Assembly: GCF_965208055.1 (NCBI RefSeq)
Contig: NZ_CBDBNY010000004.1
Span: 2,880,185-2,944,184, forward strand
Origin: Candidatus Palauibacter sp.
Lineage (GTDB): Bacteria > Gemmatimonadota > Gemmatimonadetes > Palauibacterales > Palauibacteraceae
Direction: 5' to 3'
Length of the DNA: 64,000 nt
Positions 18,728 through 62,275 of this stretch are shown here, piece by piece; within the stretch, counting starts at the first letter, position 1, and the number at the start of each line of letters is the position of its first letter. The notes below the pieces were generated by a model. The model did not search any database. It saw only the letters and a list, made by a program, of their open reading frames with translations, and was not told the origin of the DNA. Both the position numbers and the translations under genes were made by a program.

Positions 18728-18771
18728 GCTCGCCCCCGCGCGGAGGGTTCCTCCTCCTGGCTTGATGCGGG

Positions 18772-19875
18772 GTGCCCCGGATCCCAGTCTTCGGGATGGT
18801 GAGCGGGAAATTCTCGAAGCTGGATGACAGATCGGTGGCGCCAGGACTGGCGTGGAGCCTCGTTGCCGCGTTCGGTCTGGCCGGCGGTGCCGGGACGCTC
18901 TCGGCCCAGGATTCGGATTGCGGCGATCGCGCGAGCTTGCGGGTCGCGGTCCTGAACGACGACGACATGGCTCCGGTCCGGGGCGCGACGGCGGTCGTTC
19001 AGTGGACCGACACTCAACGCGCGAGGCGGCCGGTGCGCGAGGTTGTCGGAGCCGGACGCCTCGTCCTCTGCGCTCCGCGGGATGCGACACGGGCCACGCT
19101 GTGGGCGGAGTACGGGAACTTCTCGAGCGAAGAGGCGGTCGTCGCCATCGTCGCCGGGATGTCCCACGACATCAGACTGGCGCTGCGCTCGGGGCCGATC
19201 CGAACCGGCAGGCTGATCGGCCAGGTGCATGACGCGATCACGGAGGATCCGGTGGTCGCGGCCTCGGTGTTCGTTCCCGACCGTCTGCGGGTGGCCGAGA
19301 CCGATCGCCGGGGACGGTTCGTCCTGAGCGGCGTTCCGGCCGGTGTGCGGGACCTCAACGTGCGGCATCTCGGGTACGCTCCGCTTTCCCATGTGGTCGA
19401 GGTCTCCCCCGGCCTCACCACGGAGGTGGAGATCGGCATGGTCCCCGATCCGGTGGAGATGGAGCCGATCGTGGCGACGGCGACGAGGTCCCGCCGGCTG
19501 GAGGTCAAGGGCTTCTACGAACGCCGGCACTGGAGCGAACTCGTCGGCACGGGCACCTTCTACACGGCGGAGGACATCGATCGCCGCCGGCCCGTGGAGA
19601 TCTCGCACATGATCGCGGACGAGTCGGGGATCCGGCTCCAGTGCAACGCCCGGCGTACCGACTGCAGACTGGTGAACACGAGGCTGTCGTCGGGGGTCAC
19701 GGGCGCCTGTTCGCTGAACTTCTATATCGATGGCCTGCCGACGAGGGGGATCGCACTGGACGACGTCGTCAGACCGAGCGAGATCGCAGGCATCGAGATA
19801 TACAAGGGGCTGGCATCGGGTCCGGCGGAGTTCCCGCCTTCCCGGTGCGGCCTCGTCGCGGTCTGGACGAAATAG
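18772..19875 (+). CDS. Tandem paralog of the 17633 gene (CarboxypepD_reg + plug only).
   Basis: 367 aa with the same architecture and roughly 55-60 % identity by eye (GRLIGQVHDAITEDPVVAASV..., ...IEIYKGLASGPAEFPPSRCGLVAVWTK). The exact start is uncertain (MPRIP, MVSGK or a later site). Confidence 0.55.
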   Translation: MPRIPVFGMVSGKFSKLDDRSVAPGLAWSLVAAFGLAGGAGTLSAQDSDCGDRASLRVAVLNDDDMAPVRGATAVVQWTDTQRARRPVREVVGAGRLVLCAPRDATRATLWAEYGNFSSEEAVVAIVAGMSHDIRLALRSGPIRTGRLIGQVHDAITEDPVVAASVFVPDRLRVAETDRRGRFVLSGVPAGVRDLNVRHLGYAPLSHVVEVSPGLTTEVEIGMVPDPVEMEPIVATATRSRRLEVKGFYERRHWSELVGTGTFYTAEDIDRRRPVEISHMIADESGIRLQCNARRTDCRLVNTRLSSGVTGACSLNFYIDGLPTRGIALDDVVRPSEIAGIEIYKGLASGPAEFPPSRCGLVAVWTK

Positions 19876-33684: not shown

Positions 33685-35001
33685 ATGAAGCCGAAGCGCC
33701 GTTCCGTCTCCACCCGAGCCGCGACGCTCCTGCTGGCATTCCTCTCATGTCAGTCTATCGTCGGGTGTAGCGACAGCCCGACGGGTCCGCCCGAACCGCC
33801 GGAACCGCCCGAACCGCCGCCGGTAGCCACGCTGCTCGCCGCCTGCGAGGGGGGGAGGGCGCGCGGCTTCCCGTGCGAGCGTGTGGACCTCGTCGGGCGC
33901 GTGGCCCTGCCGAACCTGACACCGGGACGAACCCCCGACGGGACGAGCGATCGCTGGGCCGTGAACGACATCTGGGGGTGGACGGATCCGCAGACGGGTG
34001 TGGAGTATGCCCTCGTCGCACGCCACGACGGGCTCGCCATCGTCGATCTCTCGACTCCGATCGAACCGCGGCCCATCGCGTTCATGGGCTCCCCGACCTC
34101 GTACAGTGCCTGGCGCGACGTGAAGGTGTACGCGGATCACGCGTACGTCGTGGCCGAAATCACGGGGCACGGAGTGCAGGTGCTCGACCTCACCCGGCTT
34201 CGCGGACTGACGGAGTTCACGGTCTTGAGCGCGGATGCCCGCTACCGGGAGGTGAGCGCGGTCCACAACATCGCGATCAACGAGGAGACCGGTTTCGCCT
34301 ACGCCGTCGGCAGCAACTCGGGCGGCGAAACGTGCGGCGGCGGCCTGCACATGATCGATCTCTCGGACCCGCGGAACCCGACGTTCGCGGGGTGTTACGC
34401 GGCGGAGGGGACGGGCTGGCTGGGCAGCGGGTACACGCACGATGTCCAGTGCGTCGTATACCGGGGTCCCGACGGCGACCACGCGGGTCGCGAGATCTGC
34501 ATCGGCGCGAACGAGACCGCGATCGTCGTCTCCGACGTGACGGACAAGTCGAATCCGGTGACGGTGTCGACCGCCACCTACGCGGACCGCGACTACATCC
34601 ACCAGGGGTGGCTCAGCGAGGACCACCGGTACTTCTACCAGAACGATGAGGCGGACGAGCGGAACAACCGGGTGTCGCGGACGCGCCTGCTCGTATGGGA
34701 CGTCACCGACCTCGACGATCCGGTGCTCGCGAAGGAGCACCTGGGCCCCAGCGAGGCGGTCGATCACAACCTCTACGTCCATGAGGGGTTGATCTACCAC
34801 TCGAATTACACGTTCGGGGTGCGCATCCTCGACATCTCGGATCCGGCGAATCCCATGGAGCGGGGCTACTTCGACACGGTGCCGGACCGTGACGACCAGA
34901 CGTTCGACGGCTCCTGGTCGACCTACCCCTGGTTCGAGAGCGGCATCTTCGTCGCCTCGAGCTGGGACGAGGGCCTCTTCGTCCTGCGCCTCCAGCAGTA
35001 G
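33685..35001 (+). CDS. LVIVD-repeat (choice-of-anchor-B-like) beta-propeller lipoprotein.
   Basis: Lipoprotein N-terminus followed by a PPEPPEPPEPPP linker. Six D[LIV]S[DN]PxNP-type motifs, WGWTDPQTG and CGGGLHMIDLS. Paralog of the 35255 gene and of the C-terminus of the 2046 gene. Confidence 0.7.
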   Translation: MKPKRRSVSTRAATLLLAFLSCQSIVGCSDSPTGPPEPPEPPEPPPVATLLAACEGGRARGFPCERVDLVGRVALPNLTPGRTPDGTSDRWAVNDIWGWTDPQTGVEYALVARHDGLAIVDLSTPIEPRPIAFMGSPTSYSAWRDVKVYADHAYVVAEITGHGVQVLDLTRLRGLTEFTVLSADARYREVSAVHNIAINEETGFAYAVGSNSGGETCGGGLHMIDLSDPRNPTFAGCYAAEGTGWLGSGYTHDVQCVVYRGPDGDHAGREICIGANETAIVVSDVTDKSNPVTVSTATYADRDYIHQGWLSEDHRYFYQNDEADERNNRVSRTRLLVWDVTDLDDPVLAKEHLGPSEAVDHNLYVHEGLIYHSNYTFGVRILDISDPANPMERGYFDTVPDRDDQTFDGSWSTYPWFESGIFVASSWDEGLFVLRLQQ

Positions 35002-35254
35002 CGGTGGAACCCGCCACCCGGCTTCCCGGCCCTCTCCTTCAGGACCCTCCCTCGGCGTTCGGGGTACTGCCACTAACGAGTCATCAACAATTCCGAGGGA
35101 GCGAGAACATTGATCCAGCGGGGCGGCGCCGGACGCCGATAGACCGCGCCAGACGCCGATAGGCCCTGCTTCCATGTTGCACAGCGCCGGACGACCCGAG
35201 GGGTGGTTCGGCAGGCGACTCCTCCCTCGTAGAAGGAATAGATGAGGTGGATGA

Positions 35255-36559
35255 ATGCTTGCCGATCTCGGAACCGCGCGCGTCAGGCGTACGACGGCCG
35301 CTCTCGTTTCGACTCTGATCCTCACCGCGTGCGGCGAGAGCCTTGCGGGCCCCGTCGAACGGGACACGGATCCTCCAACCCTGTCCACCGCACCCGTCCT
35401 GGTGCGCACGACCGCCTGTCAGGGCGGGTCGGCGGGCGGGTTCCCGTGCAACGGTGTGGACCTCGTCGCGAGGATGACCGCCAGCGCCCTGCGGCCGGGG
35501 AGGGCGGCGACCCACGTGAACGATGTCTGGGGATGGACCGACCCGCAGACGGGCGTCGAGTACGCCCTGGTCGGCCGCGACGACGGGCTCTCGATCGTCG
35601 ACCTCTCCACGCCTCACGCGCCGCGGCCGATTGCGTTCCTCCCATCCCATACCGGTTCGAGCCTTTGGCGCGACATGAAGGTGTACGCGGACCATGTCTA
35701 CGTCGTCGCGGACAACATCGCCGGCCACGGGATGCAGATTCTCGACCTGACGCGGCTGCGCGGGCTGGCGGCCTTCACCGAACTCTCGGCTGACGCCCGG
35801 TATACCCGCGTAAGCGCGGTCCACAACCTCGCGATCAACGAAGAGACCGGTTTCGCCTACGCCGTCGGAAGCAACCGTGGCGGCGACACGTGCGGGGGCG
35901 GGCTGCACATGATCAATCTCTCGAACCCGACGAGCCCGAGCTTCGCGGGGTGCCACGCCGTCCCGGGCACCGGGCGCCAAGGGAGGGGATACACGCACGA
36001 TGTCCAGTGCGTCGTATATGGCGGGCCGGACGGCGCGTACGCCGGTCGAGAGATCTGCGTGGGCGCCAACGAGACCGCGATCGTCGTCTCGGACGTGACG
36101 GACAAGGCGAACCCGAGGGCGCTCTCCACCGGCGCCTACGCCGACTACGGCTACGTCCATCAGGGGTGGCTCAGCGAAGACCATCGGTACTTCTACCAGA
36201 ACGATGAACTGGATGAACTGAACGGCCGGGTCTCCCGGACGCGCCTGCTCGTGTGGGACCTGGTCGATCTCGATGATCCCGTCCTCGTAAGGGAGCATCC
36301 GGGTCCCACGGGGGCGATCGACCACAACCTCTACGTCCGCGGCAACTCCATCTACCACTCCAACTACGCGTTCGGAGTTCGGATCCTCGACATCTCGAAC
36401 GCGGCGACGCCCGTGGAGCGGGGCTTCTTCGATACCGTAGCCAGCCATGACAACACGTCGTGGGCCGGCTCGTGGTCGACCTATCCCTGGTTCGAGAGCG
36501 GCGTTTTCGTCGCCACGAGCTGGGACGAGGGCCTTTTCGTCCTGCGTCTTCAGCGGTAG
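35255..36559 (+). CDS. LVIVD-repeat (choice-of-anchor-B-like) beta-propeller lipoprotein, tandem paralog.
   Basis: Lipobox ILTAC. About 70 % identical by eye to the 33685 product (NDVWGWTDPQTGVEYALVGRDDGLSIVDLSTP...). Confidence 0.7.
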   Translation: MLADLGTARVRRTTAALVSTLILTACGESLAGPVERDTDPPTLSTAPVLVRTTACQGGSAGGFPCNGVDLVARMTASALRPGRAATHVNDVWGWTDPQTGVEYALVGRDDGLSIVDLSTPHAPRPIAFLPSHTGSSLWRDMKVYADHVYVVADNIAGHGMQILDLTRLRGLAAFTELSADARYTRVSAVHNLAINEETGFAYAVGSNRGGDTCGGGLHMINLSNPTSPSFAGCHAVPGTGRQGRGYTHDVQCVVYGGPDGAYAGREICVGANETAIVVSDVTDKANPRALSTGAYADYGYVHQGWLSEDHRYFYQNDELDELNGRVSRTRLLVWDLVDLDDPVLVREHPGPTGAIDHNLYVRGNSIYHSNYAFGVRILDISNAATPVERGFFDTVASHDNTSWAGSWSTYPWFESGVFVATSWDEGLFVLRLQR

Positions 36560-36649
36560 CGGACCGTAAGGGTTGCTCTGTCGACACTGGCCCCGGCGGG
36601 CGCCTCGCCCATAGAGTCGATCAGCAACCTCAAGGAGAAGGAGTCCCCG

Positions 36650-50830: not shown

Positions 50831-50986
50831 GCGGCACCTCCTGAACACTCCTCGACTCCTCATGATGGCGGCTCCCTCCCTGGCTCATCGTCATGCCGGC
50901 ACAATGGAACGCGCGTATGGTAGATGCGGGAAATGCGAGCCGGTATTCCCCAAATGGGGGACACTCCGGTCGCGCTTGCGCTTCCC

Positions 50987-51323
50987 TCAGTCGTCTTTCT
51001 TGCCGTGGCGGCTCTCCGGATCGAAGGTCGCTCCGGAAAGGGACTGGAGCGACAGCACGCGCCTCACCAGATCTGCCTGCCTCCCAATACCCTGCTTGCG
51101 AAAAATCTGCTGGAGGTGCCAGTGGACGCTCCGGTCCTTCCGACCAGTCGCCGCGGCGATCTCCCGCACGGTGTGACCGGCGGCCAGCATCACCGCCAAC
51201 CGGCTCTCCGTCGGCGTGAGCCCGAGGGCCGACGCCACGAAAATCCGGATCAACCCGGACCCGACTTTCGGCCTCTCTCGCAAGCGGTGCCCCACATCCA
51301 ATTCTGGTGGTGCTCCCCCTCAA
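50987..51323 (-). pseudogene. Truncated, frameshifted paralog of the LuxR-family regulator at 58547-59812. It retains the N-terminal 19 aa and the C-terminal HTH only.
   Basis: MRGSTTRIGCGAPLAREAE is identical to the start of the full-length copy and joins directly to SRVRVDPDF... An extra A in the A-run at ~51245-51248 shifts the frame. The HTH (LTPTESRLAVMLAAGHTVREIAAATGRK...) continues in another frame (50987-51301). Confidence 0.5.
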
Positions 51324-51475
51324 ACTACGTGGCCCAACCTCCCGAAGTCACCGTCAGAACTACCGGCGCGCCGGACCGCCCTTTCCCTGCAAGTTGGTGG
51401 TGCGAACCGGGCTCGTGACCGGACGACAATGTCTTGGAGGTGCCACGATTCGATTAGGCCGGGTGCGGATCGGGA
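51262..51475. promoter_or_regulatory. Copy A of a ~210-bp repeated divergent-promoter region (LuxR paralog <-> TonB-dependent receptor gene).
   Basis: About 90 % identical to 59750-59965 (ctctcgcaagcggtgccccacatccaa...ccggacgacaatg...). Confidence 0.6.
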
Positions 51476-51520
51476 CACCGTCGCCCCCCGGACGACTTCC
51501 CGGAGCTTCCATAACGAACG

Positions 51521-54500
51521 GTGAGGATCATGTTCAGAATCCGACGTATCGCAGCACTCGGTGTCCTCGCCCTGGCGTGGCCCGCCGCGGTCGCGGGCCA
51601 GGATGGGGCGATCAGCGGAACCATCACCGACGAGACCGGCCTCGCCCTGCCTACGGTGAGCGTGACCGCGACGGGTCCGGCGCTCGGGGATGAGTCGCGT
51701 ACGGCACTCAGTTCGGAGCAGGGACTCTACTCTCTGACCGGACTCCCGACGGGGACGTTCTCGCTGCGGTTCGTCTACCCCGGCTTTGCGATCGAGACGC
51801 GGGCGGGCGTCGCGGTTACGGCCGGCGACCGGACGTTGCTCGACGTCGAACTCGTCTCGCTGCGGACGGTGACGCTCGAAGAGTTGACCGCGGTGGTGAC
51901 GGGAACACACTTCGCGGCCCCGCCGATCAGTCTTCCCTACGCAGTGGACGTCTCGACCCGAGAGTCGCTGCAGGAGGAAGGGTCGCCGCTGGTGGTCGAC
52001 TTCTTCAAGCGGCTCGGGGCGAACCACGGCTCGCTGGGGGAACGGAACAGCTGGTACAACCGCAGCGGAGCGCTCGTCCCCGAGACGGTGGCCAGCGTCA
52101 ACCTGCGGGGGCTGGGAGCTTCGCGAACGCTCGTGCTGTTCAACGGACGCCGGCAGGTGTACACACCGTCCCGGCTCCCCGGCGGCCGATTCGTGGACGT
52201 CAACGCCTTCCCGAGCATCGCGCTGGACCGGATTGAGGTGCTGAAGGAGGGGGCGTCGGCGATCTACGGATCCGACGCGGTGGCCGGCGTGGCGAACTTC
52301 GTCACGCGGCAGGACTTCGAGGGCTTCGAGGTCACCGCCGCTCACGACTACTTCAGCGGGGCCGGGGACTCGAACGCAGGCGCGATCTGGGGCGGCCGCC
52401 TTGGGGCGTCCACGAACGTGGTCGTCGCCGCAGAGTGGGCGGCGCGGCAGGAACTCATGCCCGAGGAGCGAGACTGGGGGCTGCGACCGTACCCGGGGCC
52501 CGGCGGCGGGGGCTGGTCATACTACGGGAACCCCGGGGCCTTCCTCATGCCGAGCCTGACCGGGAACGAGACGCCCGGTGAGTTCGTGAGCGCGCTCATC
52601 GGCTCGCAGTTCGGCGCCAACCCGAATCTGTTCGTGGATCCCGAGTGCGAGAACTTCGGCGGAGTGAACGAGGGTGTCACGTGCCGGTTCCGCTACCAGC
52701 CGTACGACAACCTGGTCGATAAGCAGAACCATATACGGGCCTTCGGCGAGATCAACGGCGAACTGGGCGCAAGCACGACGTTCCACCTCGAGGGCCTGTG
52801 GTCCGAGGCCACAATCCCGGACTGGCGGACCACGCCCTCGTTTCCCCCGATCTCCCTTTACGACGGCCTTCAGCTCGTCGTACCGGAAAACCCGGGCCGG
52901 CAGGCGTTCTGCGCGGCCAACGCGGGGCACGCCGGGTTCGCTTCCGCCGCCGACTGCCTGCAGGACGACTGGTACTTCTACGGACGGATGGTGGGGAACA
53001 GCGGCCCGGGACGGACGCTGCACCGGTCGTCGCGCACCCAGAGGATCGCGGCATCGATCGACCGGCACTTCGAGGAGACCGAGGGCCACCTGGACATCTC
53101 CGTCAGCTACTCGCGTGCCTCCGGCAACGTGAACCAGCCGGCGGAGTACGCCTACCGCAAATACCTCGCCTACCGCGGCTTCGGAGGCCCGAACTGCGGC
53201 GTCGATGTGGTCGTTGACCCGACTTCGCCGGCCGGCATGTCGCTCGGTTCGACCGGCGGCGCCGTGGCGGGGCAGGGCGACTGCATGTTCTACAACCCGT
53301 TCAGCAACGCGATCCAGCGCGCCGAGCAGCCGGGGACGCAATACACCAACGCCAACAACCCCGGATACGTGGCCGGTGCGGCCAACTCCCCCGAGTTGCT
53401 CGGCTGGATCAACGAGGAAGTCGATCTCTTCAACACCGCCGACCTGTTCGTGGCGGAGGCCACCTTCACGGGCCAGTTCACGGAGGCGCTCGGCTACGCG
53501 CTCGGATATCAGTTCCGCCGCTTCGACGTGACGGGGACGCCCAACGACGCCGGCAACCAGGCGCTCAACCCTTGCCAGGTGCCGGGGGATCGCACCTGCC
53601 TCGAGCAGGCGGGGCCGTTCACGTTCACGACGGGGTACTTCCCGTACGAGGACGGGCAGACCGTGCATCGCTTCTACGGCGAGATCCCGCTCAATCTCGG
53701 GGACCGGCTCGATCTGCAGTTCGCCGCCAACTACGAGTTCCACGACGTGGCGAGCAGCTTCGACCCAAAGGTCTCACTTCGGCTGAACCTGACCGACTCG
53801 GACAATCACGAGCTTTCTCTTCGTGGCTCGCTTCAGTCGACATTCCGCGTCCCGTCCGTGGATGACGTGAACACGGACCAGATCACGGCGCTCGAGTACG
53901 TGCAGGAAGTGGATGTCTACAAGGCGGTGGACACCTTCGGAAGCGCCGATCTGGACCCGGAACGGGCGGTGACGGGCAACGTGGGGCTCATTTTCTTTCA
54001 CTATCCGAGCCGCCTGCAGGCGACTTTCGATTACTGGAGCTACGACTTCAGGGACGTGATCAACGTGATCCCCCATTCGAGTATCACGCGGCTCTATCAC
54101 GAGGGGGGCGCCAGCCGCGCCGCGGTCCGGGGGTTCGTGAAGTGCCCGGACGGCTGGGGGACGGGGACCTGTGACGCGGCCCTCATCGAGCGCATCCGGA
54201 TCGATCTGATCAACTGGCCGGGCATGCAGACCTCGGGCTTCGATTGGAGCCTGTCGACCCGGCGCACGCTCGGGAGCGGGGAGCTTGCACTCGGGATCGA
54301 CGGCACCTACACGCGCACCTACGACATCAAGGCGCTCGAGGTCGGCGGCGTGGAGCTGGTGGGCGCGACGGAGGGCGTCGGGACGCTGAATCGCAACAAC
54401 CCGCTCGCCTGGCCCCTGCCGCAGTGGAAGTGGTCGGCGTCGGCCGGATACCACGCGGATCGCTATTCGATCATCGGCAACGTCAACTACATCTCATCCT

Positions 54501-54739
54501 ACGAGGACGACCTCAACGCGGGCGACCCGACGTATCCCCACCGCGTCATCGACGCCTTCGGCACCTTCGACGCCACGGTGATGATGAAGCTGACGGACAG
54601 CATCGACGCCTTCGTGACGGGCTTCAACCTGTTCGATACGGCGCCGCCGCTGGTCAATCAGGAAGGGGCCTACGACGGCCTCACGCACGACCCCAAGGGG
54701 CAGCGCCTCAAGGCCGGCATGACCTACACGATCAACTAG
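51521..54739 (+). CDS. TonB-dependent receptor (SusC/RagA-like; CarboxypepD_reg + plug + beta-barrel).
   Basis: Signal peptide. ISGTITDETGLALPTVSVTATG... The plug ends ...IEVLKEGASAIYGSDAVAGVANFVTR. Long barrel domain. 1072 aa. Confidence 0.8.
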   Translation: MRIMFRIRRIAALGVLALAWPAAVAGQDGAISGTITDETGLALPTVSVTATGPALGDESRTALSSEQGLYSLTGLPTGTFSLRFVYPGFAIETRAGVAVTAGDRTLLDVELVSLRTVTLEELTAVVTGTHFAAPPISLPYAVDVSTRESLQEEGSPLVVDFFKRLGANHGSLGERNSWYNRSGALVPETVASVNLRGLGASRTLVLFNGRRQVYTPSRLPGGRFVDVNAFPSIALDRIEVLKEGASAIYGSDAVAGVANFVTRQDFEGFEVTAAHDYFSGAGDSNAGAIWGGRLGASTNVVVAAEWAARQELMPEERDWGLRPYPGPGGGGWSYYGNPGAFLMPSLTGNETPGEFVSALIGSQFGANPNLFVDPECENFGGVNEGVTCRFRYQPYDNLVDKQNHIRAFGEINGELGASTTFHLEGLWSEATIPDWRTTPSFPPISLYDGLQLVVPENPGRQAFCAANAGHAGFASAADCLQDDWYFYGRMVGNSGPGRTLHRSSRTQRIAASIDRHFEETEGHLDISVSYSRASGNVNQPAEYAYRKYLAYRGFGGPNCGVDVVVDPTSPAGMSLGSTGGAVAGQGDCMFYNPFSNAIQRAEQPGTQYTNANNPGYVAGAANSPELLGWINEEVDLFNTADLFVAEATFTGQFTEALGYALGYQFRRFDVTGTPNDAGNQALNPCQVPGDRTCLEQAGPFTFTTGYFPYEDGQTVHRFYGEIPLNLGDRLDLQFAANYEFHDVASSFDPKVSLRLNLTDSDNHELSLRGSLQSTFRVPSVDDVNTDQITALEYVQEVDVYKAVDTFGSADLDPERAVTGNVGLIFFHYPSRLQATFDYWSYDFRDVINVIPHSSITRLYHEGGASRAAVRGFVKCPDGWGTGTCDAALIERIRIDLINWPGMQTSGFDWSLSTRRTLGSGELALGIDGTYTRTYDIKALEVGGVELVGATEGVGTLNRNNPLAWPLPQWKWSASAGYHADRYSIIGNVNYISSYEDDLNAGDPTYPHRVIDAFGTFDATVMMKLTDSIDAFVTGFNLFDTAPPLVNQEGAYDGLTHDPKGQRLKAGMTYTIN

Positions 54740-54884
54740 AGAGGTGGACCCTGGATCACCTGATCGCCAGATACTCGATCGAGGCGGAGAGACCGTCGTC
54801 TAACTCCTGCTGCAGGCCGGCGTCGATCCCCACGCCCGGAACGACCTTCGGAACTACGCCCTCATCAACCATGGAGTTGCCCAA

Positions 54885-57878
54885 TTGATCCAGAGAGATT
54901 TTTCCGGAAGCACACGCCTCGCGATCTCCGCGGCGGCGGGACTGGTCGTAACGACCTTGTTCACGTCCGCATGTCGAGACGGGACGACCAACCCCGAGCG
55001 GGTGAACGACTCGCCAGTCGCAACCGGGACGATTCCCGCCCAGACCGTGGAAGTGGGAGAAACCGTCACCGTGGACCTGTCCGACCACCTGAGTGACCCG
55101 GATGGAGATGCGCTGACCTATTCGGCTCAGACCTCCGACCCCCGCGTGGCCACCGTCTCGGTGTCGGGGAGCAACGCGCTCGTGACCGGCGTAGCGAAGG
55201 GAGCGGCGACTATCACCTTGACGGCGACGGATCCGAGCGGCCTCTCGGCACAGCAGAGCTTCGGGGTCGAGGTGCCGAACCGTGCGCCGGAAACCGTGGG
55301 GAACATTGCGGACCTGGAACTGCTCGGTGGAGACACGGTCACCATCGATGTCTCCGGACACTTCACCGATCCCGATGGCGACGCCCTGACCTTCGAGGCC
55401 ATCACTTCGGACGAAGGGGTGGCGACCGCTTCCGTGCAAGGCGCAACCGTCACCGTCGTCGCCGTTTCCGACGGCACCGCGTTGCTGACCGTCACCGCGG
55501 GCGACCCCGGGGGCCTCTCTGCGGAACAGGGCTTTTCCGCCACGGTGGATCGTTCGGGCGACCCGATGGTGAGGTTCCTGACGGGTCCGGTGTCAGTCCT
55601 CGAGGGGGAGAGGGTCGTCGTGGAACTGGAAGCGCGCCCGGTACCCGAATCGGCACTCGAAGTGGGCTACACGGTCGGGGGAGACGACGACCCGCAGACC
55701 GACGACGCGGACGCAGCGGACCACGACGCCGGGACCGGCGGTACGATTCGATTCGAGGCCGGATCAGGGCGTGCAACGCTCGAGATCACGGTCCGGGATG
55801 ACCGCGAAGTCGACCCGACGCGCGAGGTCCTCGGAGTCTCGCTCGATACGCCGGCGGCAGGGGCGGGCTACGGCCTGGGTTCCTCCACCGTTGCTTTGGC
55901 GACCATCGAAGAGGGCGTGTGCGACCGGACGCCGCGGGTCCGGGACGAACTGATGGCCATCACGGCGGTAGACCGGTGCCACGCGATCGCAGGCTCTCAT
56001 CTGGCGGCGATAAATGCGCTCGACCTGCGGGGGCCCGCGCCGCAGCGCTCGAACGTGGCATCGGATCTCCCCGGGGCGGAAGGAGCGCGGAGCCGCGGCT
56101 GCAGCCCTCGGGAGAGCTCCGCCCTGCGTGGACAGGGCCGCGGGCTCTCGGCGCCGGAGCTGGCGGAATGTTTGCCGATGGCCCAAGCGCGCATGTCGCC
56201 GGCGTCTCCGCCCTCGAGCGCAAGCGCGGGCGCGAGCACCGGAGAGCCCCTCACCGAACTGCGCGCCGGGGACTTCCTGGAGTTGACCGAACTGAAAGAG
56301 TTGCGTCTGCTCGACAACGATCTGACCGAACTCCCGGGGGGCATCTTCTCCGGGCTGAACGAGTTGCGCGTCCTCATCATGGACCGCAACCGGCTGGAGA
56401 AACTCCCCGGTGGGCTCCTGTCGGGACTCCCGCGGCTGGAGGTCTTCGCGGTCGCCGAGAACGAACTGACCCGGCTCCCGCCCGATCTTTTCTCCGGGCC
56501 TTCACGGCTGGAGGGTGTATGGCTGTACGGGAACAAGCTGACCGAACTGCCGGCGGGGCTGTTCACGGATCTCGACAACCTGGAGCAACTTCACCTCGCG
56601 GATAACCGCCTGGACGTCTTGCCGGCAGAGATCTTCGCCGGGCTGGGCCGACTCAGGATTCTCACTCTGCACAGAAACAGGCTGGCGGAATTGGACGCAG
56701 CGGTGTTTTCCGAACTCGGCGACCTGGAGCAACTGTATCTCTCGCACAACGGACTGACCGAGCTGCCCTCCGGCGTGTTCTCGAACCTCGGCGGCCTGGA
56801 GATATTGCTGCTCGCCGAGAACCGGTTGACCGGGCTGCCGCTTGACGTGTTCGCGAACCTCGGCAGTCTTGAAGGCTTGTACCTGGACGACAACCGGCTG
56901 CGGGGACTGCCGAACGGGCTGTTCGACGGCCTTACGGGTCTTGTGACGCTGCGCCTCGGCGGCAACCGGATCGCCGAGGTCGAGAGCGGCGCCTTCGCCG
57001 CCCTGTCCGGACTCCGATGGTTGCACCTGCATCAGAACCGCCTTGTCCGCCTCGAGCCCGGCGTGTTCTCGGGGCTCTCCGGATTGCACGGCCTGGCGCT
57101 GGAAGAGAACCGGATCCGTGATCTCGGGCCGGGAGTGTTCGACGGGCTGTCGCGTCTCGAAGTGCTCATCCTGAGAGACAACCAGTTGGACGTGCTGGAA
57201 GGCGGTGTCTTCACCGGCCTTCCCGCGCTGGTTGAGCTGTGGCTCTACAGCAACCAGATCGCGGAGCTGTCGGAAGACGTGCTCGCGGACCTTCCGCTCT
57301 TGAGGAAACTGAGCATGTGGGACAACCGACTGACCGAATTGCCGCCGGGAGTGTTCTCGGAGCTCACCAGGCTGGAGGAGTTGTCCGTTGCCCAAAACCA
57401 GCTCGCCAAGCTGCCGGAGGGGGTCTTTTCCGGCCTCGCCGCGTTGAAAGTTCTGTCTGCGGCGCGCAACGATCTTGCCGCGCTGCCCGACGGCGTATTC
57501 GAGGGACTTTCGGACCTGGCCTACCTCAATCTGGGCTCCAATCCGGGCGCGCCCTTCCCCCTCGATGTCCGGTTGGAAAGGACGGATACGCTGGATCTCA
57601 AGGCCCCCGGGCCGGCCAGGGTGGTGCTGTCCCTCGCGGAGGCGACGCCCTTCCCCATAACGATCCCGCTGGCCGTGGAGGGAGGAACGCTGTCCACCGA
57701 CAGGGCGACGATCGAGCGAGGGCGAACCACGAGCGCCGAGTTCACCGTGACCATGAACCCGTCCAGCCAGACCGGCACCGCAGTTGTCCTGGGGCCGGCA
57801 CCCCTGGTTCCGGAGCCGATGATCGGAGTGTATCCGGTTGCGGCCGACAGGCTGGTCCTCTTCACGACGGGAGGTTGA
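54885..57878 (+). CDS. Large lipoprotein with two Ig-like (Big/cadherin-like) domains, a Calx-beta-like domain and about 19 leucine-rich repeats.
   Basis: Lipobox LFTSAC. DPDGDALTY/DPDGDALTF Ig-like modules. Long array of LxxLxLxxNxLxxLPxGxFxGL repeats. Confidence 0.7.
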   Translation: MIQRDFSGSTRLAISAAAGLVVTTLFTSACRDGTTNPERVNDSPVATGTIPAQTVEVGETVTVDLSDHLSDPDGDALTYSAQTSDPRVATVSVSGSNALVTGVAKGAATITLTATDPSGLSAQQSFGVEVPNRAPETVGNIADLELLGGDTVTIDVSGHFTDPDGDALTFEAITSDEGVATASVQGATVTVVAVSDGTALLTVTAGDPGGLSAEQGFSATVDRSGDPMVRFLTGPVSVLEGERVVVELEARPVPESALEVGYTVGGDDDPQTDDADAADHDAGTGGTIRFEAGSGRATLEITVRDDREVDPTREVLGVSLDTPAAGAGYGLGSSTVALATIEEGVCDRTPRVRDELMAITAVDRCHAIAGSHLAAINALDLRGPAPQRSNVASDLPGAEGARSRGCSPRESSALRGQGRGLSAPELAECLPMAQARMSPASPPSSASAGASTGEPLTELRAGDFLELTELKELRLLDNDLTELPGGIFSGLNELRVLIMDRNRLEKLPGGLLSGLPRLEVFAVAENELTRLPPDLFSGPSRLEGVWLYGNKLTELPAGLFTDLDNLEQLHLADNRLDVLPAEIFAGLGRLRILTLHRNRLAELDAAVFSELGDLEQLYLSHNGLTELPSGVFSNLGGLEILLLAENRLTGLPLDVFANLGSLEGLYLDDNRLRGLPNGLFDGLTGLVTLRLGGNRIAEVESGAFAALSGLRWLHLHQNRLVRLEPGVFSGLSGLHGLALEENRIRDLGPGVFDGLSRLEVLILRDNQLDVLEGGVFTGLPALVELWLYSNQIAELSEDVLADLPLLRKLSMWDNRLTELPPGVFSELTRLEELSVAQNQLAKLPEGVFSGLAALKVLSAARNDLAALPDGVFEGLSDLAYLNLGSNPGAPFPLDVRLERTDTLDLKAPGPARVVLSLAEATPFPITIPLAVEGGTLSTDRATIERGRTTSAEFTVTMNPSSQTGTAVVLGPAPLVPEPMIGVYPVAADRLVLFTTGG

Positions 57879-58296
57879 CATCCATCGGCGGGTTCGCGCT
57901 GGAGCCGCCCTGTTCCTGGTCGGCGCCATCGCGTGCGTTGACGGCCCGTCCGAACCGGCTTCGATCGAATTCGGCGGCCGCTCGGCAAGCATCACATCAG
58001 TGCCGACGAACGGGGGGACGCTGTCCGGCGGTGGGTCGTGGCGCCTGGCGGCGGGACAGACGGTCACCACCAGCCTGAGTGCGATCCCCAACCCCGGCTA
58101 CGACTTCGACCGTTGGACGGAAGACGGAACGACGCTCTCCACCGATTCGGTGTACCTCTCATTATTTCCGCCAGAACGAAGCGGGTTTCCTCGGCCCCTA
58201 GTGGTCGCAAATGGACGCCTCGCCCCGGAGTTGCTAGGCGTACACGCACCGGCGACGGGCTCGTGTGAACGAAGCTGGGGGTGCTCCGATCCCTAA
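57838..58296 (+). CDS. Small lipoprotein fragment with one Listeria-Bacteroides (Flg_new/InlB-B type) repeat. It looks 3'-truncated.
   Basis: ...LFLVGAIAC lipobox, then PNPGYDFDRWTEDGTTLSTDSVYL. The ORF then runs into an AT-richer junction. The only in-frame ATG lies 41 nt inside the upstream gene. Confidence 0.3.
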   Translation: MRPTGWSSSRREVDIHRRVRAGAALFLVGAIACVDGPSEPASIEFGGRSASITSVPTNGGTLSGGGSWRLAAGQTVTTSLSAIPNPGYDFDRWTEDGTTLSTDSVYLSLFPPERSGFPRPLVVANGRLAPELLGVHAPATGSCERSWGCSDP

Positions 58297-58546
58297 GCTC
58301 GCGCCCAACCCACTCGATGTGGCGGCACGGAGAGCGGGCGCCACGTGCGCCTACCGTTACCGTCCCCGGCTGTTTTGATACGGTAAGTGGAGCACGGGTG
58401 GCGCGAACCACGGCAAGAAACAACGTAAGTTCAATCAGGACTGTACGATCTGCCCTTCGTGTCGCCGGATCATGTCTTGATCCGCCGTGCTGAAATGGCC
58501 GGCAAACGGCATCGGTTTACGGCATTCGGAGTGATCGAACACCCGG

Positions 58547-59812
58547 TCAAGCGGTCGTGCTTCCCCTTTCCTCAGTGGTACCTCCGCCGTGGCCGCTCTT
58601 CGGATCGACCGTCGTTCCGAAAAGAGTCTGCATCGACAACACGCGCCTCACCAACTCAGCCTGCCTCCCGATGCCCTGCTTGCGGTAAATCTGCTGCAGG
58701 AGCCAGTGGACGCTCCTTTCCTTTCGACCCGTCGCGGCGGCGATCTCCCGCACGGTGTGACCGGCGGCCAGCATCACCGCCAACCGGCTCTCCGTCGGCG
58801 TGAGCCCGAGGGCCGACGCCACGAAATCCGGATCAACCCGGACCCGACTTTCCGGGCTCACCGCCAGGACGATGGCGGCCACACGGTGCGTTCGGTCGTC
58901 CCTCGACTCCGCTCCCACCGGATTGACATGAACGATCAACGTCTTCGAAGGGGAAGGGCGCCGGATGACCATCGACCCACCGACCGCCTGACCGCCGAAG
59001 GGCGGCAGAGCACCCGCAAGCAACAGCTGAAGTTCGGCATTCTCCGCCTGTCTCGCAGCGCGAAGAAAACCTCCCGGGTCGATCAACGCGTCGCCCTGCC
59101 GCAGGATGTCACGGGCCACGTCGTTTGCCTCCACGACCCGACCCCGCCGATCCAGCTGGATGGCGCACGTGCGGGTGTTGTCGAGCAGGCCGGCGAGTGT
59201 CTCGCCATATGCGCGGGCATCGACGAGAACCTGTCGCACGCCGATGGAATGGCCCATGTGCGGCAGCAGGCGCTCGATCATCTCGACCTGTCCGGACGAC
59301 CAGCCCGCCGACTCGCTGGAGTCGGCCAGGGCGACGACGATGTGCGTTCCCGCGGGCCCGTCCAGACGCACGTTGAGGCCGTCTCGCCCCCGCATGTCGC
59401 GCAACATCTCGTTGTAGACGGCCGACGTCTTCCGCTCGCTCTCGGTCAGGAGATCCCCGGTAGGCGCCACCTCGCCACTCGCCAGCCGACCGAAGGCGGG
59501 CAGGCGTTCGTCACGAGTCACGTAGTCACGGAGATACGCGCGCTCCCAATCCCTGCGCCGCCGCCGTCCGAAGACGAAGCGCAGCGCCAGGAGGTCCCCG
59601 TCGCGGTCCGGATACCCCGGGCCGAATCCGAGGCCGTGGCCCCTCGTTCCGGTGGCTTCGTTGAAGCCGGCAGCGGCGGAGAGCCAATACCCGTCCTCCA
59701 ACGCCGCCCGTTGCAGCAGCGCGAGGGTACGCTGGAACAGATCCCCCTGGCTCACTTCGGCCTCTCTCGCAAGCGGTGCCCCACATCCAATCCTGGTGGT
59801 GCTCCCCCTCAA
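58547..59812 (-). CDS. LuxR-family transcriptional regulator with a ~320-aa N-terminal sensor domain.
   Basis: C-terminal HTH LTPTESRLAVMLAAGHTVREIAAATGRKERSVHWLLQQIYRK. 421 aa. Confidence 0.7.
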   Translation of the reverse strand: MRGSTTRIGCGAPLAREAEVSQGDLFQRTLALLQRAALEDGYWLSAAAGFNEATGTRGHGLGFGPGYPDRDGDLLALRFVFGRRRRRDWERAYLRDYVTRDERLPAFGRLASGEVAPTGDLLTESERKTSAVYNEMLRDMRGRDGLNVRLDGPAGTHIVVALADSSESAGWSSGQVEMIERLLPHMGHSIGVRQVLVDARAYGETLAGLLDNTRTCAIQLDRRGRVVEANDVARDILRQGDALIDPGGFLRAARQAENAELQLLLAGALPPFGGQAVGGSMVIRRPSPSKTLIVHVNPVGAESRDDRTHRVAAIVLAVSPESRVRVDPDFVASALGLTPTESRLAVMLAAGHTVREIAAATGRKERSVHWLLQQIYRKQGIGRQAELVRRVLSMQTLFGTTVDPKSGHGGGTTEERGSTTA

Positions 59813-59965
59813 ACTACGTGGCCCATCCTCCAGAAGTCACCGTCAGAACTACCGGCGCGCCGGACCGCCCTTTCCCTGCAAGTTGGTGGTGCGAACCGGG
59901 CTCGTGACCGGACGACAGTGCATTGGAGGTGAAAGAATTCGACTAAACGGGGTGGGGATCACGAT
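59750..59965. promoter_or_regulatory. Copy B of the repeated divergent-promoter region (LuxR regulator <-> TPR membrane protein gene).
   Basis: See copy A. Confidence 0.6.
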
Positions 59966-59983
59966 GGCGGCGTGGGGTCGATG

Positions 59984-62275
59984 AGCGTGACCGGGATTGG
60001 GTTGATCCGCAGCCTGATCGAGCGTCGCGTTCCGCACGCCGTGGGCATCTATGCAGGTGCCTTCTGGGGTCTCTTCGAGTTCACCGAAGCAATCGTGGTG
60101 GAGCGGCTGCTGCTCTCAACGCACTACGACAACCTCGTCTTGTTGGCGGCCCCCCTTCTGCTGCCGAGCGTGATCCTGCTGGCGTGGTTTCACGGCAAGC
60201 CCGGCCGGGACAGGGAGACGCTCGCCCGGACCGAGAAGATCGGGATTCCGGCGAATCTGGCGCTGTGCGGGATCGTACTCTGGGCGGTCTTCGCCGGCAC
60301 GGATCTCGGTCGCATGACGACTGCCGTGACGGTCACGGACGAGGACGGAGGCGTCGTCGAGCGGGAGATCGTGAAACCCGGGTTCCGGAAGTCCGTGGCC
60401 CTGTTTCCGTTCAACCTCGGACCCGGCGCCGGCGAGGACGACACGTGGCTCGCCTACGCGGTGCCGTTCGCACTCGAGCTGGATCTCCTGGCGGACGACT
60501 TCTTCATCGCGAAGGGGGGTTTCCTCGACAGGAACGAAGCCCTCTTCCGCGACCGCCTTATCGAACGGGGCTTTGCCGACCTCCGCGGCGTCCCGCTGAC
60601 CCTCAAACGGGAGGTTGGCGAAGAGGCGCACGCGGAGTTTCTGACCGACGGCGAAATCGGTCGCACCGGTGATCTCTACCGGGCGGTCCAGCGGGTGTAC
60701 AGGGTGGACGACGGGTCGCTGGAGAACGAGACCGTCCATGAGGGAACGGACCTCCTGGCGCTGCTGGACGACCTGTCGGTCTCGCTGAAGCGGGCGGTCG
60801 GGATTCCGGCCCGGGAGGGTGTGGAGGACCTTCCCGTTCGCGCACGGCTCTCCGACGACGACGCGGCCGTGGAGGCGTTATTCCGCGGCCTTGAGGCGGC
60901 CTTCGTCAGGGCCGATCTTGCTGCTGCCATCGAACTCACGACTGCGGCGATCGAGCGGGACCCCACCTTCGCGGCGGCCCAGTACATCCTGTCGACTTAC
61001 GCGCAGCTCGCCAACCGGGGGGAGAAAGCCGCCGCCCCGATGCAGGCGGCCATCGATCACGAGTACCGGTTGCCGGAGCGCGTGCGCCTCGGTGTCAGGA
61101 AGGATTACTACCTTGCGCTGGGGGATCTCGAAAAGGCGGCCGCCGCCGCAAGGATGTGGGTCGAGCTCTACCCGGACGACCTGCTCGCGCTCACCAACTA
61201 CAAGGAGTTGCTGGACGCCCTGGGCGACAAGGAAGGCGTGCTCGCAACGCTGGAGGCCATGCGGGATCTCGACCCGCGGAATGGTGATCTCCCCCAACAG
61301 ATCGCCCGAGTTCACGAAGAACTGGGAAACGACGAACGGGCCCTTCGGGCGCTAACCGACTATGTAGACAGCTTCCCGGAGGATGCGAGCGGGTACGCGG
61401 GGCTCGCCGCGCTTCAGAAACGCCTTGGGGACTACGGAGCCGCGCGCGGTCTCCTGGACGACGCCATCCTCCTGGAGCCCTTCTCGGCGGCATTGACGGC
61501 CCAACTCGCAGCCCTTGAACTGGACGCCGGCAACTACGCGCAAGCATGGGCGGGATACGAGCGCGCCCTGGAGGCGGCCCGGACCCCGGAGCAGAAGATC
61601 GAAGTGCTCGGTGGGATCGCGAAGTATCACCTGCGCCGGGGCGAGGTGGTGCTTGCCGTGGAGGCCACGGAAATGTTGCTGGAAGGGGCGTCCGGCCTCA
61701 CAAGCCCGGCGGAGGTCTCGGGTGTGCTGGTCCTTTTTCTCCTTGACATCCTTTTTTCCGGTGGCCGTGCGAGTGACCTCTCGGCCCTTATTGAAACGGC
61801 GAATGACCCGAACATCACCCAGTTCGGGATGATGCTCGGGATGGTCGAGTCGGCGGCGCCGGAGACCGCGCGCGAGCTCTACCGCACGTTTGAAGCGGCC
61901 GCTCCCTCCGATCCGACTCTCCTGCGGTTAATCGGATCGCTGGCGGAACGCGCGGGAGAATATGAGCCTGCCGCCGAAGCTTACCGGCGGGCCACGGGGC
62001 TGGACCGTAGCCTGAACTTGCACGGCGATGCCGGACGTGCGCTGCGCATGGCCGGGCGGCTGGACGAGTCCGAGGCCGAACTGACCGAAGCGTTGCGTCT
62101 GGTTCCCGGCGATCCGAGGGCGCACTTCGAGATGGCGCTGCTGCTGGAGGCCCGGGGTGACCTCGATGGCGCGGCAGAACATCTGCGCGGCGCGTTGACC
62201 GCCTGGGAGAACGCGGACGAAGACTACGAGCCGGCGACACAGACGCGGACGAAGCTGGACGAACTCGAGCGATGA
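59984..62275 (+). CDS. Membrane-anchored tetratricopeptide-repeat (TPR) protein.
   Basis: Two or three N-terminal TM helices, then a long TPR-like helical region (...ALRALTDYVDSFPEDASGYAGLAALQKRLGDYGAARGLLDDAI...). Confidence 0.6.
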   Translation, partial: SVTGIGLIRSLIERRVPHAVGIYAGAFWGLFEFTEAIVVERLLLSTHYDNLVLLAAPLLLPSVILLAWFHGKPGRDRETLARTEKIGIPANLALCGIVLWAVFAGTDLGRMTTAVTVTDEDGGVVEREIVKPGFRKSVALFPFNLGPGAGEDDTWLAYAVPFALELDLLADDFFIAKGGFLDRNEALFRDRLIERGFADLRGVPLTLKREVGEEAHAEFLTDGEIGRTGDLYRAVQRVYRVDDGSLENETVHEGTDLLALLDDLSVSLKRAVGIPAREGVEDLPVRARLSDDDAAVEALFRGLEAAFVRADLAAAIELTTAAIERDPTFAAAQYILSTYAQLANRGEKAAAPMQAAIDHEYRLPERVRLGVRKDYYLALGDLEKAAAAARMWVELYPDDLLALTNYKELLDALGDKEGVLATLEAMRDLDPRNGDLPQQIARVHEELGNDERALRALTDYVDSFPEDASGYAGLAALQKRLGDYGAARGLLDDAILLEPFSAALTAQLAALELDAGNYAQAWAGYERALEAARTPEQKIEVLGGIAKYHLRRGEVVLAVEATEMLLEGASGLTSPAEVSGVLVLFLLDILFSGGRASDLSALIETANDPNITQFGMMLGMVESAAPETARELYRTFEAAAPSDPTLLRLIGSLAERAGEYEPAAEAYRRATGLDRSLNLHGDAGRALRMAGRLDESEAELTEALRLVPGDPRAHFEMALLLEARGDLDGAAEHLRGALTAWENADEDYEPATQTRTKLDELER

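Follow-up and report, generated by a model that had tools for sequence, protein, structure and literature searches.

The window analysed here, a 64-kb stretch of DNA from Candidatus Palauibacter (marine Gemmatimonadota), carries two copies of a predicted LuxR/GerE-type regulator gene, both on the minus strand, of which one is intact and one is short. The copies are spaced 7.5 kb apart, and a repeat search across the 64 kb found their repeat blocks (families D4 and D5) at these two places only. The features of the locus are as follows:

50987-51149, minus strand: 3′ part of the short copy (recognition helix and tail), apparently from an older, different paralogue lineage
51150-51266, minus strand: 5′ part of the short copy, equivalent to codons 303-341
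51268-51430, minus strand: control region of the short copy
51431-51483, plus strand: distal part of the repeat at the short copy, a gene-start relic upstream of the TonB-receptor gene
51521-54739, plus strand: TonB-dependent receptor with CarboxypepD_reg and Plug domains (Pfam), divergent from the short copy
54885-57878, plus strand: surface protein with Ig-like (Big_9/cadherin-like) domains and leucine-rich repeats (Pfam), 3′ of the receptor gene
58547-59755, minus strand: intact LuxR/GerE-type regulator of 402 aa, with a GTG start at 59755-59753
58850-59755, minus strand: part of the intact gene that is missing from the short copy
59756-59917, minus strand: control region of the long copy
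59918-59972, plus strand: distal part of the repeat at the long copy, a gene-start relic
59972-62275, plus strand: TPR-repeat membrane protein (Pfam TPR families), divergent from the intact regulator

The short copy has unique flanks, with an Erm-like gene on one side and the TonB receptor on the other. Both neighbours named in an earlier note on this DNA, the TonB-dependent receptor and the TPR protein, are present according to Pfam, and we infer that each control-region copy drives its plus-strand gene. The description of the receptor as SusC-like holds for its CarboxypepD_reg and Plug N-terminus only; TIGR04056 scores 25.1 bits (cut-off 368) and the next gene encodes the Ig/LRR protein, not a SusD, so that the gene is not assigned to the SusC/RagA family. 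A composition profile over the 7.9-kb block revealed no anomaly and thus no signal of horizontal transfer.

The intact gene had previously been read as an ORF of 421 aa (58547-59812), which is over-extended. Sixteen homologues, the nearest of them 397-402 aa long, align from the MSQGD that begins at the GTG at 59755, and the annotation should therefore read 402 aa. The predicted protein combines two PAS/GAF-like sensors (residues ~1-150 and ~185-300) with a C-terminal HTH (~309-374), and its AF2 model (mean pLDDT 81) shows helices at 309-374. Foldseek matched this model to VqmA, EL222 and the ligand-binding domains of AHL-LuxR receptors, while the profile of the regulator family matched the HTH domains of GerE, NarL, DesR and VraR in the PDB. 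As a single sequence the long copy reaches 20.2 bits for PF00196, below the cut-off of 23.5, most of its homologues carry PF00196, and the 3′ part of the short copy scores 27.3 bits; both copies can thus be assigned, by profile and model, to the LuxR/GerE-type HTH class. No Pfam or NCBIfam model matches the sensor part of the intact regulator. The autoinducer-binding domain PF03472 is absent at E values up to 0.01, with a fold resemblance that is distant at 10-19% identity, and no luxI-type synthase turned up in the examined gene neighbourhood of either copy, so that filing the protein as a quorum-sensing receptor would not be justified. A check for lux-box palindromes returned a 10-bp near-palindrome in the control region, GGTkCGCACC, whose conservation is partial.

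Aligned by blastn, the regions of the two copies share two significant blocks, 50967-51275 with 58552-58859 (87.7% over 310 columns, E 1e-102) and 51267-51471 with 59756-59960 (92.7% over 205 nt, E 9e-84). These blocks and the junction between them bear out that a degenerate paralog of the regulator has been retained together with its upstream control region, as the earlier note had proposed, and the supposed similarity of the intergenic regions is upheld. The loss of sensor sequence, first put at ~0.9 kb, amounts to 906 nt, comprising the start codon and codons 1-302 of 402 and with them both sensor domains. In the short copy GCGAGAGAGGCCGAA is joined to AGTCGGGTCC at 51266/51267, and the breakpoints in the long copy read ...GGCCGAA / GTGAGCC... 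and ...GAGCCCGGAA / AGTCGG...; the microhomology recognised before is either an exact GAA or an imperfect CCGAA/CGGAA. As the homologues begin at the GTG at 59755, the 19 codons that were thought to be retained are non-coding 5′ leader, and the true start codon is deleted. No ATG, GTG or TTG lies 4-10 nt past the GAGAGG ribosome-binding site of the short copy, the nearest in-frame TTG being found by eye at 18 nt. RefSeq annotates a 102-aa HTH protein here (WP_419940202.1) and not a pseudogene, and gene callers predict products of 83 aa (P0121) and 102 aa. A peptide predicted from the fragment reads ASALGLTPTESR...

The short copy furthermore carries the extra base reported earlier, which lies at AAAA 51240-51243 instead of ~51245 and corresponds to AAA at 58824-58826 (plus strand; TTTT on the coding strand of the short copy). 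That this base represents a homopolymer phase switch, as had been suggested, or else a site of programmed frameshifting, either of which would toggle an HTH product, would suit an indel in a homopolymer that is the only difference from the long copy within 117 nt. We nevertheless regard such a switch as very improbable. A mononucleotide contingency tract usually measures at least 7 nt and the run grows just from 3 to 4 nt, the HTH has no credible start codon in either frame, the allele occurs on one contig only, and the 906-bp deletion already inactivates a gene that, with its start codon gone and its length cut by 75%, does not resemble a contingency locus.

An assembly or sequencing artefact would also account for the inserted base, or even for the deletion. 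The errors that persist in long-read assemblies are chiefly homopolymer indels, the related records are long-read MAG assemblies, and exact-protein look-ups gave no match for the regulator, whether as 421 or as 402 aa, or for the 83-aa P0121, leaving the short allele without a second, independent assembly. The junction is, however, a clean microhomology junction between unique flanks, where a repeat collapse would instead have dropped the 7.5 kb that separate the copies; the short copy is marked as a distinct locus by its divergent 3′ end, and a run of 4 nt is short for a consensus error, so that we consider an artefact unlikely.

The metagenome scaffold L086 from a close relative carries the same TonB-receptor gene, adjoining a full-length regulator of 402 aa (P0001). 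It matches the window with 95.3% identity in the 5′ end of the receptor gene (L086 1-696) and with 98.9% in the receptor-proximal intergenic DNA. Because the gene at this site in L086 is full length, the short copy is, judged by sequence comparison, a derived deletion of a gene that was once full length, and the decay at one site proposed earlier is supported at that very position. Decayed loci are found in other genomes as well, where 12 of ~73 family loci (~1 in 6) are truncated or frameshifted, one protein shows another internal deletion (P0159 compared with P0138), and the family also yields dozens of ORFs of 63-180 aa, some of these fragments lying beside IS elements. LRR/Big_2 genes, found upstream of the regulator in six loci (L002, L003, L081-L083, L085), represent the usual type of divergent neighbour. 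From these data a family of tandem-PAS LuxR-type regulators emerges that is large, uncharacterised and spread over unrelated uncultured marine lineages, many of them sponge-derived; no literature on this family in sponge symbionts or Palauibacter was found.

The earlier observation that ~210 bp upstream of the two copies are alike, ahead of different plus-strand genes, corresponds to the 92.7% block described above. On alignment with its homologues, this shared ~200 bp is a complete, compact divergent intergenic region, with probable operator sites, followed by the relic of an ex-neighbour's gene start. The control regions of the two copies are 98.1% identical, with 3 mismatches in 161 nt, and the region is conserved in the subfamily loci (L001-L006, L068, L081-L087). 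In the leader of the long copy a Shine-Dalgarno sequence, GAGAGG (59766-59761), stands 5 nt ahead of the GTG, together with two conserved TAnnnT boxes, and the region probably holds both divergent promoters; a sigma-70 scan of both copies gave no consensus promoter site. The control region is non-coding, as homologues differ here by indels whose lengths are not divisible by three, which also rules out a small coding ORF in the leader. Terminator-like hairpins number one per region, within chance expectation. In the distal part, the long copy retains the ribosome-binding site (GGAGGTG at 59925), a destroyed ATG and the opening codons of a divergent gene that once stood here, and the short copy retains the same ribosome-binding site (GGAGGTG at 51436) with the ATG changed to ACG. 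Both were recognised as relics by alignment with two subfamily loci (L005 and L068), in which GGAGGTGcc-ATG opens the signal peptide MIRLNRARITTVALFSLMAG.

The strong conservation right before the start codon, which extends to subfamily members whose proteins are 73-93% identical, could also be expected of a structured, riboswitch-like cis-regulatory RNA in the ~165-nt leader common to both copies, and one helix indeed shows an A-U/G-C/C-G exchange. Yet the fold of either strand is less stable than those of shuffled sequences (z +1.67 and +2.65), the RNAalifold consensus amounts to -5.9 kcal/mol with a covariation term of ~0, Rfam at E values up to 10 gives no family, and a degenerate leader pattern found no match in JGI metagenome contigs. 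As the conserved region is moreover the whole 176-nt divergent intergenic region, we see hardly any likelihood of such an RNA.

The identity between the copies changes sharply along the short copy. The first 117 nt past the junction are identical to the long copy bar the indel, whereas the last 163 nt are only 83.8% identical (Fisher p = 1e-8), and dS rises from 0.03 to 0.56 at the boundary. These 163 nt are closer to genes of other species (89.6% to L005, 90% to L006) than to the long copy, while ~280 nt at the 5′ side are 98-100% identical to it, so that the simple recent duplication first assumed has to be given up. As the 3′ end is diverged while the 5′ parts are near-identical, the pattern indicates two paralogues of long standing that recombination has homogenised in part, and a recent tract of gene conversion that would span the junction. 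The control region of L086 is 90% identical to either window copy but its receptor-side flank (equivalent to 51431-51520) is 98.9% identical, which places the overwrite in the lineage of the window. The near-identity of the control regions could also reflect selection, not conversion alone, and the events could have occurred in either order, conversion followed by deletion or deletion followed by two junction-bounded conversions. Single-event histories, such as a Campbell-type integration or a tandem duplication, could not be fitted, with identities among L086, L087, L005 and the long copy that are patchy at 86-99% per 100 nt.

We therefore favour, with a probability of roughly 80%, reading the short copy as a pseudogene relic that arose by ordinary decay in a gene family with rapid turnover. 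It has lost its start codon and three quarters of its codons as detailed above, and an intact gene stands at the orthologous site in L086. A full-length copy beside the TonB-receptor and LRR genes would have lost 906 bp through a microhomology-flanked deletion that removed the start codon and both sensor domains, and afterwards would have gained, or been mis-sequenced with, one extra base. Gene conversion with the long copy as donor would recently have overwritten the control region (163 nt) and the 117 nt that directly follow the junction. The intact regulator may then act in trans on both control-region copies, at one site governing its own expression and that of the TPR gene, at the other the TonB-receptor and LRR genes, while the HTH fragment itself would be a non-functional relic.

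The fragment might instead work as an HTH-only mini-regulator of 83-104 aa that, independent of any signal, competes with or substitutes for the intact regulator at a shared operator. Its HTH is intact and above the Pfam GerE cut-off, its promoter region is held at 98% identity to that of the intact gene, and PGAP as well as other gene callers predict proteins of 83 and 102 aa. GerE is known to function as a stand-alone protein, its HTH fold (1fse) is matched in the PDB, and many short HTH-only ORFs of the family lie on long contigs. We judge this quite unlikely all the same, as the native start codon is gone and no substitute is suitably spaced from the ribosome-binding site. Elsewhere, the starting points of the short ORFs vary, many lying at the conserved internal Met of GGSM as an effect of ORF calling, and several of these ORFs adjoin IS elements or carry frameshifts; the full-length gene in the close relative, in turn, makes the short form young and not conserved. 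The 3′ part shows an omega of 0.18 (range for the HTH of the fragment 0.18-0.29) and no disabling substitution, but such a low omega (~0.2) is uninformative on function after the deletion, since the divergence predates the recent truncation.

Going beyond a pseudogene relic, we tentatively consider, as a possibility that is rather doubtful at present, that the regulator and its compact divergent control region form a portable recombination cassette in Palauibacter, and that the short copy is kept for its control region, which the intact paralogue would switch in trans. Exchange between paralogues would then put one sensor-controlled promoter before differing surface or envelope genes, among them the TonB receptor with the LRR protein, the TPR protein, FGE-sulfatase-like proteins and others, and every move would leave relics of the prior neighbour's start codon. 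Conversion would keep the control region identical, enabling the intact paralogue to activate the TonB-receptor and LRR genes in trans, and a leftover HTH-only peptide might even modulate this control.

For annotation, the 102-aa HTH protein listed by RefSeq at the short copy is most likely a relic. The locus offers what appears to be a clean case in which gene conversion preserves the same promoter region at an intact regulator and at its decayed paralogue, and it leaves the current understanding of regulators or pseudogenes unchanged. The family is usually encoded beside leucine-rich-repeat or Ig-like surface proteins, which are candidates for host interaction.

Among known systems, VqmA of Vibrio and EL222 of Erythrobacter likewise combine a PAS-type sensor with a C-terminal four-helix GerE-type HTH (7dwm, 6ide and 8a5r; Foldseek E ~1e-4, profile match to 7dwm E 2e-4), but the window protein carries two PAS/GAF-like modules in tandem (~300 aa) and shares only 12-17% sequence identity with them. 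With AHL LuxR receptors and LuxR solos such as TraR, LasR, CviR and QscR it has the HTH class in common, and its N-terminal module reaches a TM score of 0.6 in Foldseek to the ligand-binding domains of CviR, LasR and CepR2; unlike these receptors, it gives no sequence match to the autoinducer-binding domain and has an extra PAS domain. TrlR/TraS of Agrobacterium Ti plasmids is a frameshift-truncated, dominant-negative TraR paralogue that occurs with the intact gene in the same genome. TrlR has no HTH but still possesses the domain for ligand binding and dimerisation, whereas the short copy has kept the HTH and lost the sensor together with the start codon. The sharp switch from ~99% to ~84% identity and the concerted evolution of the 5′ part resemble the gene-conversion mosaics of tuf genes, rRNA operons and surface-protein cassettes, although here, unlike in those mosaics, the recipient would be a pseudogene and the tract covers a deletion junction and a promoter region.

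The short regulator copy in the window, which we judge to be a pseudogene relic of a LuxR/GerE-type regulator, lies about 7 kb from an intact paralogue, and the elements concerned are the following.

50987-51266, minus strand: short copy, truncated paralogue
51268-51430: control region of the short copy
51521-54739, plus strand: TonB-receptor gene
58547-59755, minus strand: long copy, intact regulator gene
59756-59917: control region of the long copy
59972-62275, plus strand: TPR gene

Local alignment of the two regions gave two blocks of significant similarity, 50967-51275 against 58552-58859 (87.7 % identity, E 1e-102) and 51267-51471 against 59756-59960 (92.7 %, E 9e-84), and a repeat search found only two copies of the regulator repeat within the 64-kb window. 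Read in gene orientation (minus strand, breaks marked by a slash), the short copy runs GCGAGAGAGGCCGAA/AGTCGGGTCC across its junction, while the long copy reads ...GGCCGAA/GTGAGCC... at the 5' and ...GAGCCCGGAA/AGTCGG... at the 3' breakpoint; the short copy thus lacks 906 nt (58850-59755). The deletion is flanked by the microhomology GAA (imperfect CCGAA/CGGAA), and the short copy carries one extra base, AAAA at 51240-51243 versus AAA at 58824-58826. The degenerate paralogue with internal deletion and extra A beside an intact gene, as reported in the earlier note, is therefore real and far beyond chance. On the minus strand, the extra T also makes a terminator-like site at 51245-51264, a 7-bp stem followed by ATTTTCGT; the hairpin also occurs inside the coding region of the long copy, and the count of 1 against 0.5 expected is within chance.

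When the protein was aligned with 16 homologues, those at 70-93 % identity, ten in number, began at MSQGD or had unrelated upstream extensions. This start is the GTG at 59755-59753, which gives a 402-aa protein and is preceded by GAGAGG 5 nt upstream; indels between homologues upstream of it are not multiples of three. The 421-aa ORF is thus over-extended, the true long-copy product having 402 aa, and the "first 19 codons" believed to be kept in the short copy are 5' leader. The 906-nt deletion took the start codon together with codons 1-302, and no ATG, GTG or TTG is in reach of the ribosome-binding site of the short copy, the nearest in-frame TTG being 18 nt off. A functional HTH-only product might be considered, as the HTH of the short copy shows no disabling change and omega is ~0.2, but this value reflects divergence accumulated while the gene was intact and is therefore silent on selection since a recent truncation. 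With a ribosome-binding site devoid of a start codon, a short form that is not conserved and a full-length gene at the same site in a relative (scaffold L086), such a product is improbable; the proposed homopolymer phase-switch generating an HTH-only mini-regulator is less credible still. In RefSeq, the short ORF of the relic is annotated as WP_419940202.1, a 102-aa "helix-turn-helix domain-containing protein" from Candidatus Palauibacter sp. encoded on a 4.03-Mb contig, Palauibacter belonging to the order Palauibacterales of the Gemmatimonadota (PMC10469786).

Identity between the two copies is uneven along their length.

51268-51430 (163 nt), control region: 98.1 % to the long copy, 3 mismatches in 161 nt
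51150-51266 (117 nt), after the junction: full match to the long copy except for a one-base insertion
50987-51149 (163 nt), 3' end: 83.8 % to the long copy; elsewhere 89.6 % to L005, 90 % to L006 and 87.7 % to L084 (homologous loci)

Mismatch density differs significantly between these segments (Fisher p 1e-8), and from the post-junction segment to the 3' end synonymous divergence rises sharply, from 0.03 to 0.56; the copies are therefore old paralogues with a recent gene-conversion tract, ~280 nt as now standing, that crosses the deletion junction. The idea of a duplicated regulator module consequently stands as far as two related copies are concerned, but the duplication was not a recent one. 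The single-base insertion falls within the young tract and is either very recent or an error; we consider a sequencing error unlikely.

The direction of events is indicated by L086 (ENA ERZ23495228), a 3.9-kb scaffold whose TonB-receptor 5' end is 95.3 % identical to 51521-52225 and in which a full-length 402-aa regulator (P0001) is encoded divergently from that receptor gene, so the short copy derives, by truncation, from a gene that was once full-length at this site. The L086 control region shares just 90 % identity with each of the window copies, whereas its receptor-proximal intergenic flank reaches 98.9 % to 51431-51520; the control region of the short copy was therefore overwritten, most simply by the long copy as donor. 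The 3' end of L086 is closer to the long copy (97.9 % identity) than to the short one (85.8 %). L087, a further subfamily locus, has the 3' flank of the long copy (58153-58385); its HTH end is about equally close to both (88.7 % to the short, 88-89 % to the long copy), and its protein P0003 has recognition-helix residues of the short type. Relatives resemble one another unevenly along the gene (86-99 % identity per 100 nt); recombination among paralogues is evidently recurrent, and the history could not be reduced to a single event. In our reading, a deletion produced the relic, and gene conversion with the intact paralogue has kept it partly identical.

The divergent promoter repeat of ~200 bp, said to precede different plus-strand genes, is present at 51267-51471 and 59756-59960, but its distal end is the relic of a former gene start. 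In L005 and L068 of the related genome NZ_OZ244149.1, a divergent gene begins at this end with its ribosome-binding site, ATG and signal peptide (MIRLNRARITTVALFSLMAG...), and the entire intergenic region there is 176 nt only; both window copies keep the distal stretch with the ATG destroyed (GGAGGTG at 51436 and 59925). The repeat therefore comprises the whole of a compact divergent control region, with a remnant of a former neighbour's 5' end attached. Downstream of the block lie genes for a TonB receptor (window, L086), a TPR protein (window) and an FGE-sulfatase-like protein (L005), another gene (L068) or an IS element (L001). A profile search located the control region in front of subfamily members of 73 % protein identity or more and nowhere else; it had no match in Rfam and no covariation support, and its predicted folding on either strand was poorer than that of shuffled sequence. 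It presumably drives the plus-strand genes and would be bound by the intact regulator. The control region contains two conserved TAnnnT boxes, TAGTTCTG and TAGTTTGA, which may serve as -10-type elements; no site came out of a strict sigma-70 scan. The first box (59853-59860 / 51364-51371) reads TAGTTCTG, with TAGTTTTG or TATTTTTG at the homologous position in relatives (L002, L084, L006). It matches the Bacteroidota-type -7 promoter element, TAnnTTTG, and may offer a lead on Gemmatimonadota promoter architecture.

Decay is common in the family, 12 of ~73 loci from species-representative genomes being truncated and/or frameshift-split (L058, L061, L063-L068, L070, L071, L073, L075), some of them with an IS3 or IS21 element or a group II intron reverse transcriptase as neighbour. 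Dozens of HTH-only family ORFs of 63-180 aa are present in the protein database, many with the internal Met of the conserved GGSM as their start, this being the first ATG to remain once the 5' part is lost. P0159, an internal-deletion form of the longer family ORF P0138, joins ...QGDGLA to VMVAVG...; this deletion is of the same kind as that in the window at another position, which suggests recurrent microhomology deletions. A converse relic, control region plus the first 68-87 codons, lies in NZ_OZ244149.1 (L068:5837-6256, L005; ~1.08-1.10 Mb), 10 kb from the full-length copy and surrounded by IS21 IstB, a group II intron reverse transcriptase and three FGE-sulfatase paralogues.

Two gene relics were also observed between the TonB-receptor and LRR genes (54747-54836). 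One, 54747-54789, is on the reverse strand 95 % identical to part of the N-terminal coding region (LDHLIARYSIEAE) of the L005 FGE-sulfatase-like gene (5567-5610), which adjoins the L005 regulator; the other, 54793-54836, shares 80 % identity with an ankyrin-like repeat (30799-30842). These relics suggest that a rearrangement joined the receptor and LRR genes. Further repeats in the window are a 144-nt tandem array of 4 copies (24143-24646), a tandem gene duplication at 33839-36562 (1.56-kb spacing, 76-84 % identity) with an inverted third copy 31 kb away (2317-3105), and a second duplicated pair at 17922-19589 (1.15-kb spacing).

Relatives of the regulator, tandem-PAS/LuxR proteins of ~380-400 aa and 45-57 % identity, were found in MAGs from very different phyla (L005-L080), the Gemmatimonadota among them, with the labels Longimicrobiales, Binatia, Entotheonella, Gamma-, Delta- and Alphaproteobacteria, Acidobacteriota and Dehalococcoidia, several apparently sponge-derived by species name or bin label. 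Multiple copies per genome are frequent, and some lie in tandem (L013, L029). The sensor is covered by no model of Pfam or NCBIfam, and a literature search found no paper on the family. Members of the close subfamily typically have an Ig-like/LRR surface-protein gene as their divergent neighbour (L002, L003, L081-L083, L085); in the window, this canonical position belongs to the short copy, beside the TonB-receptor and Ig/LRR genes. This family and its cassette-like shuffling beside surface-protein genes represent a lead of greater interest than the relic.

Pfam and NCBIfam matched only the C-terminal GerE/LuxR-type HTH of the regulator, through which the family profile also hit GerE, NarL, DesR, VraR, EL222 and a phage VqmA entry (7dwm) in the PDB, with weak PAS-domain matches at residues 174-242. 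In an AlphaFold2 model (mean pLDDT 81), two PAS/GAF-like alpha/beta modules precede the HTH. The protein belongs to the one-component sensor-regulators, in the LuxR/GerE class, and the label of quorum-sensing receptor cannot be assigned to it. Foldseek returned AHL-receptor ligand-binding domains at E ~1e-4 and 10-19 % identity; in the same search and the same ranges, the modelled fold resembles those of VqmA and EL222.
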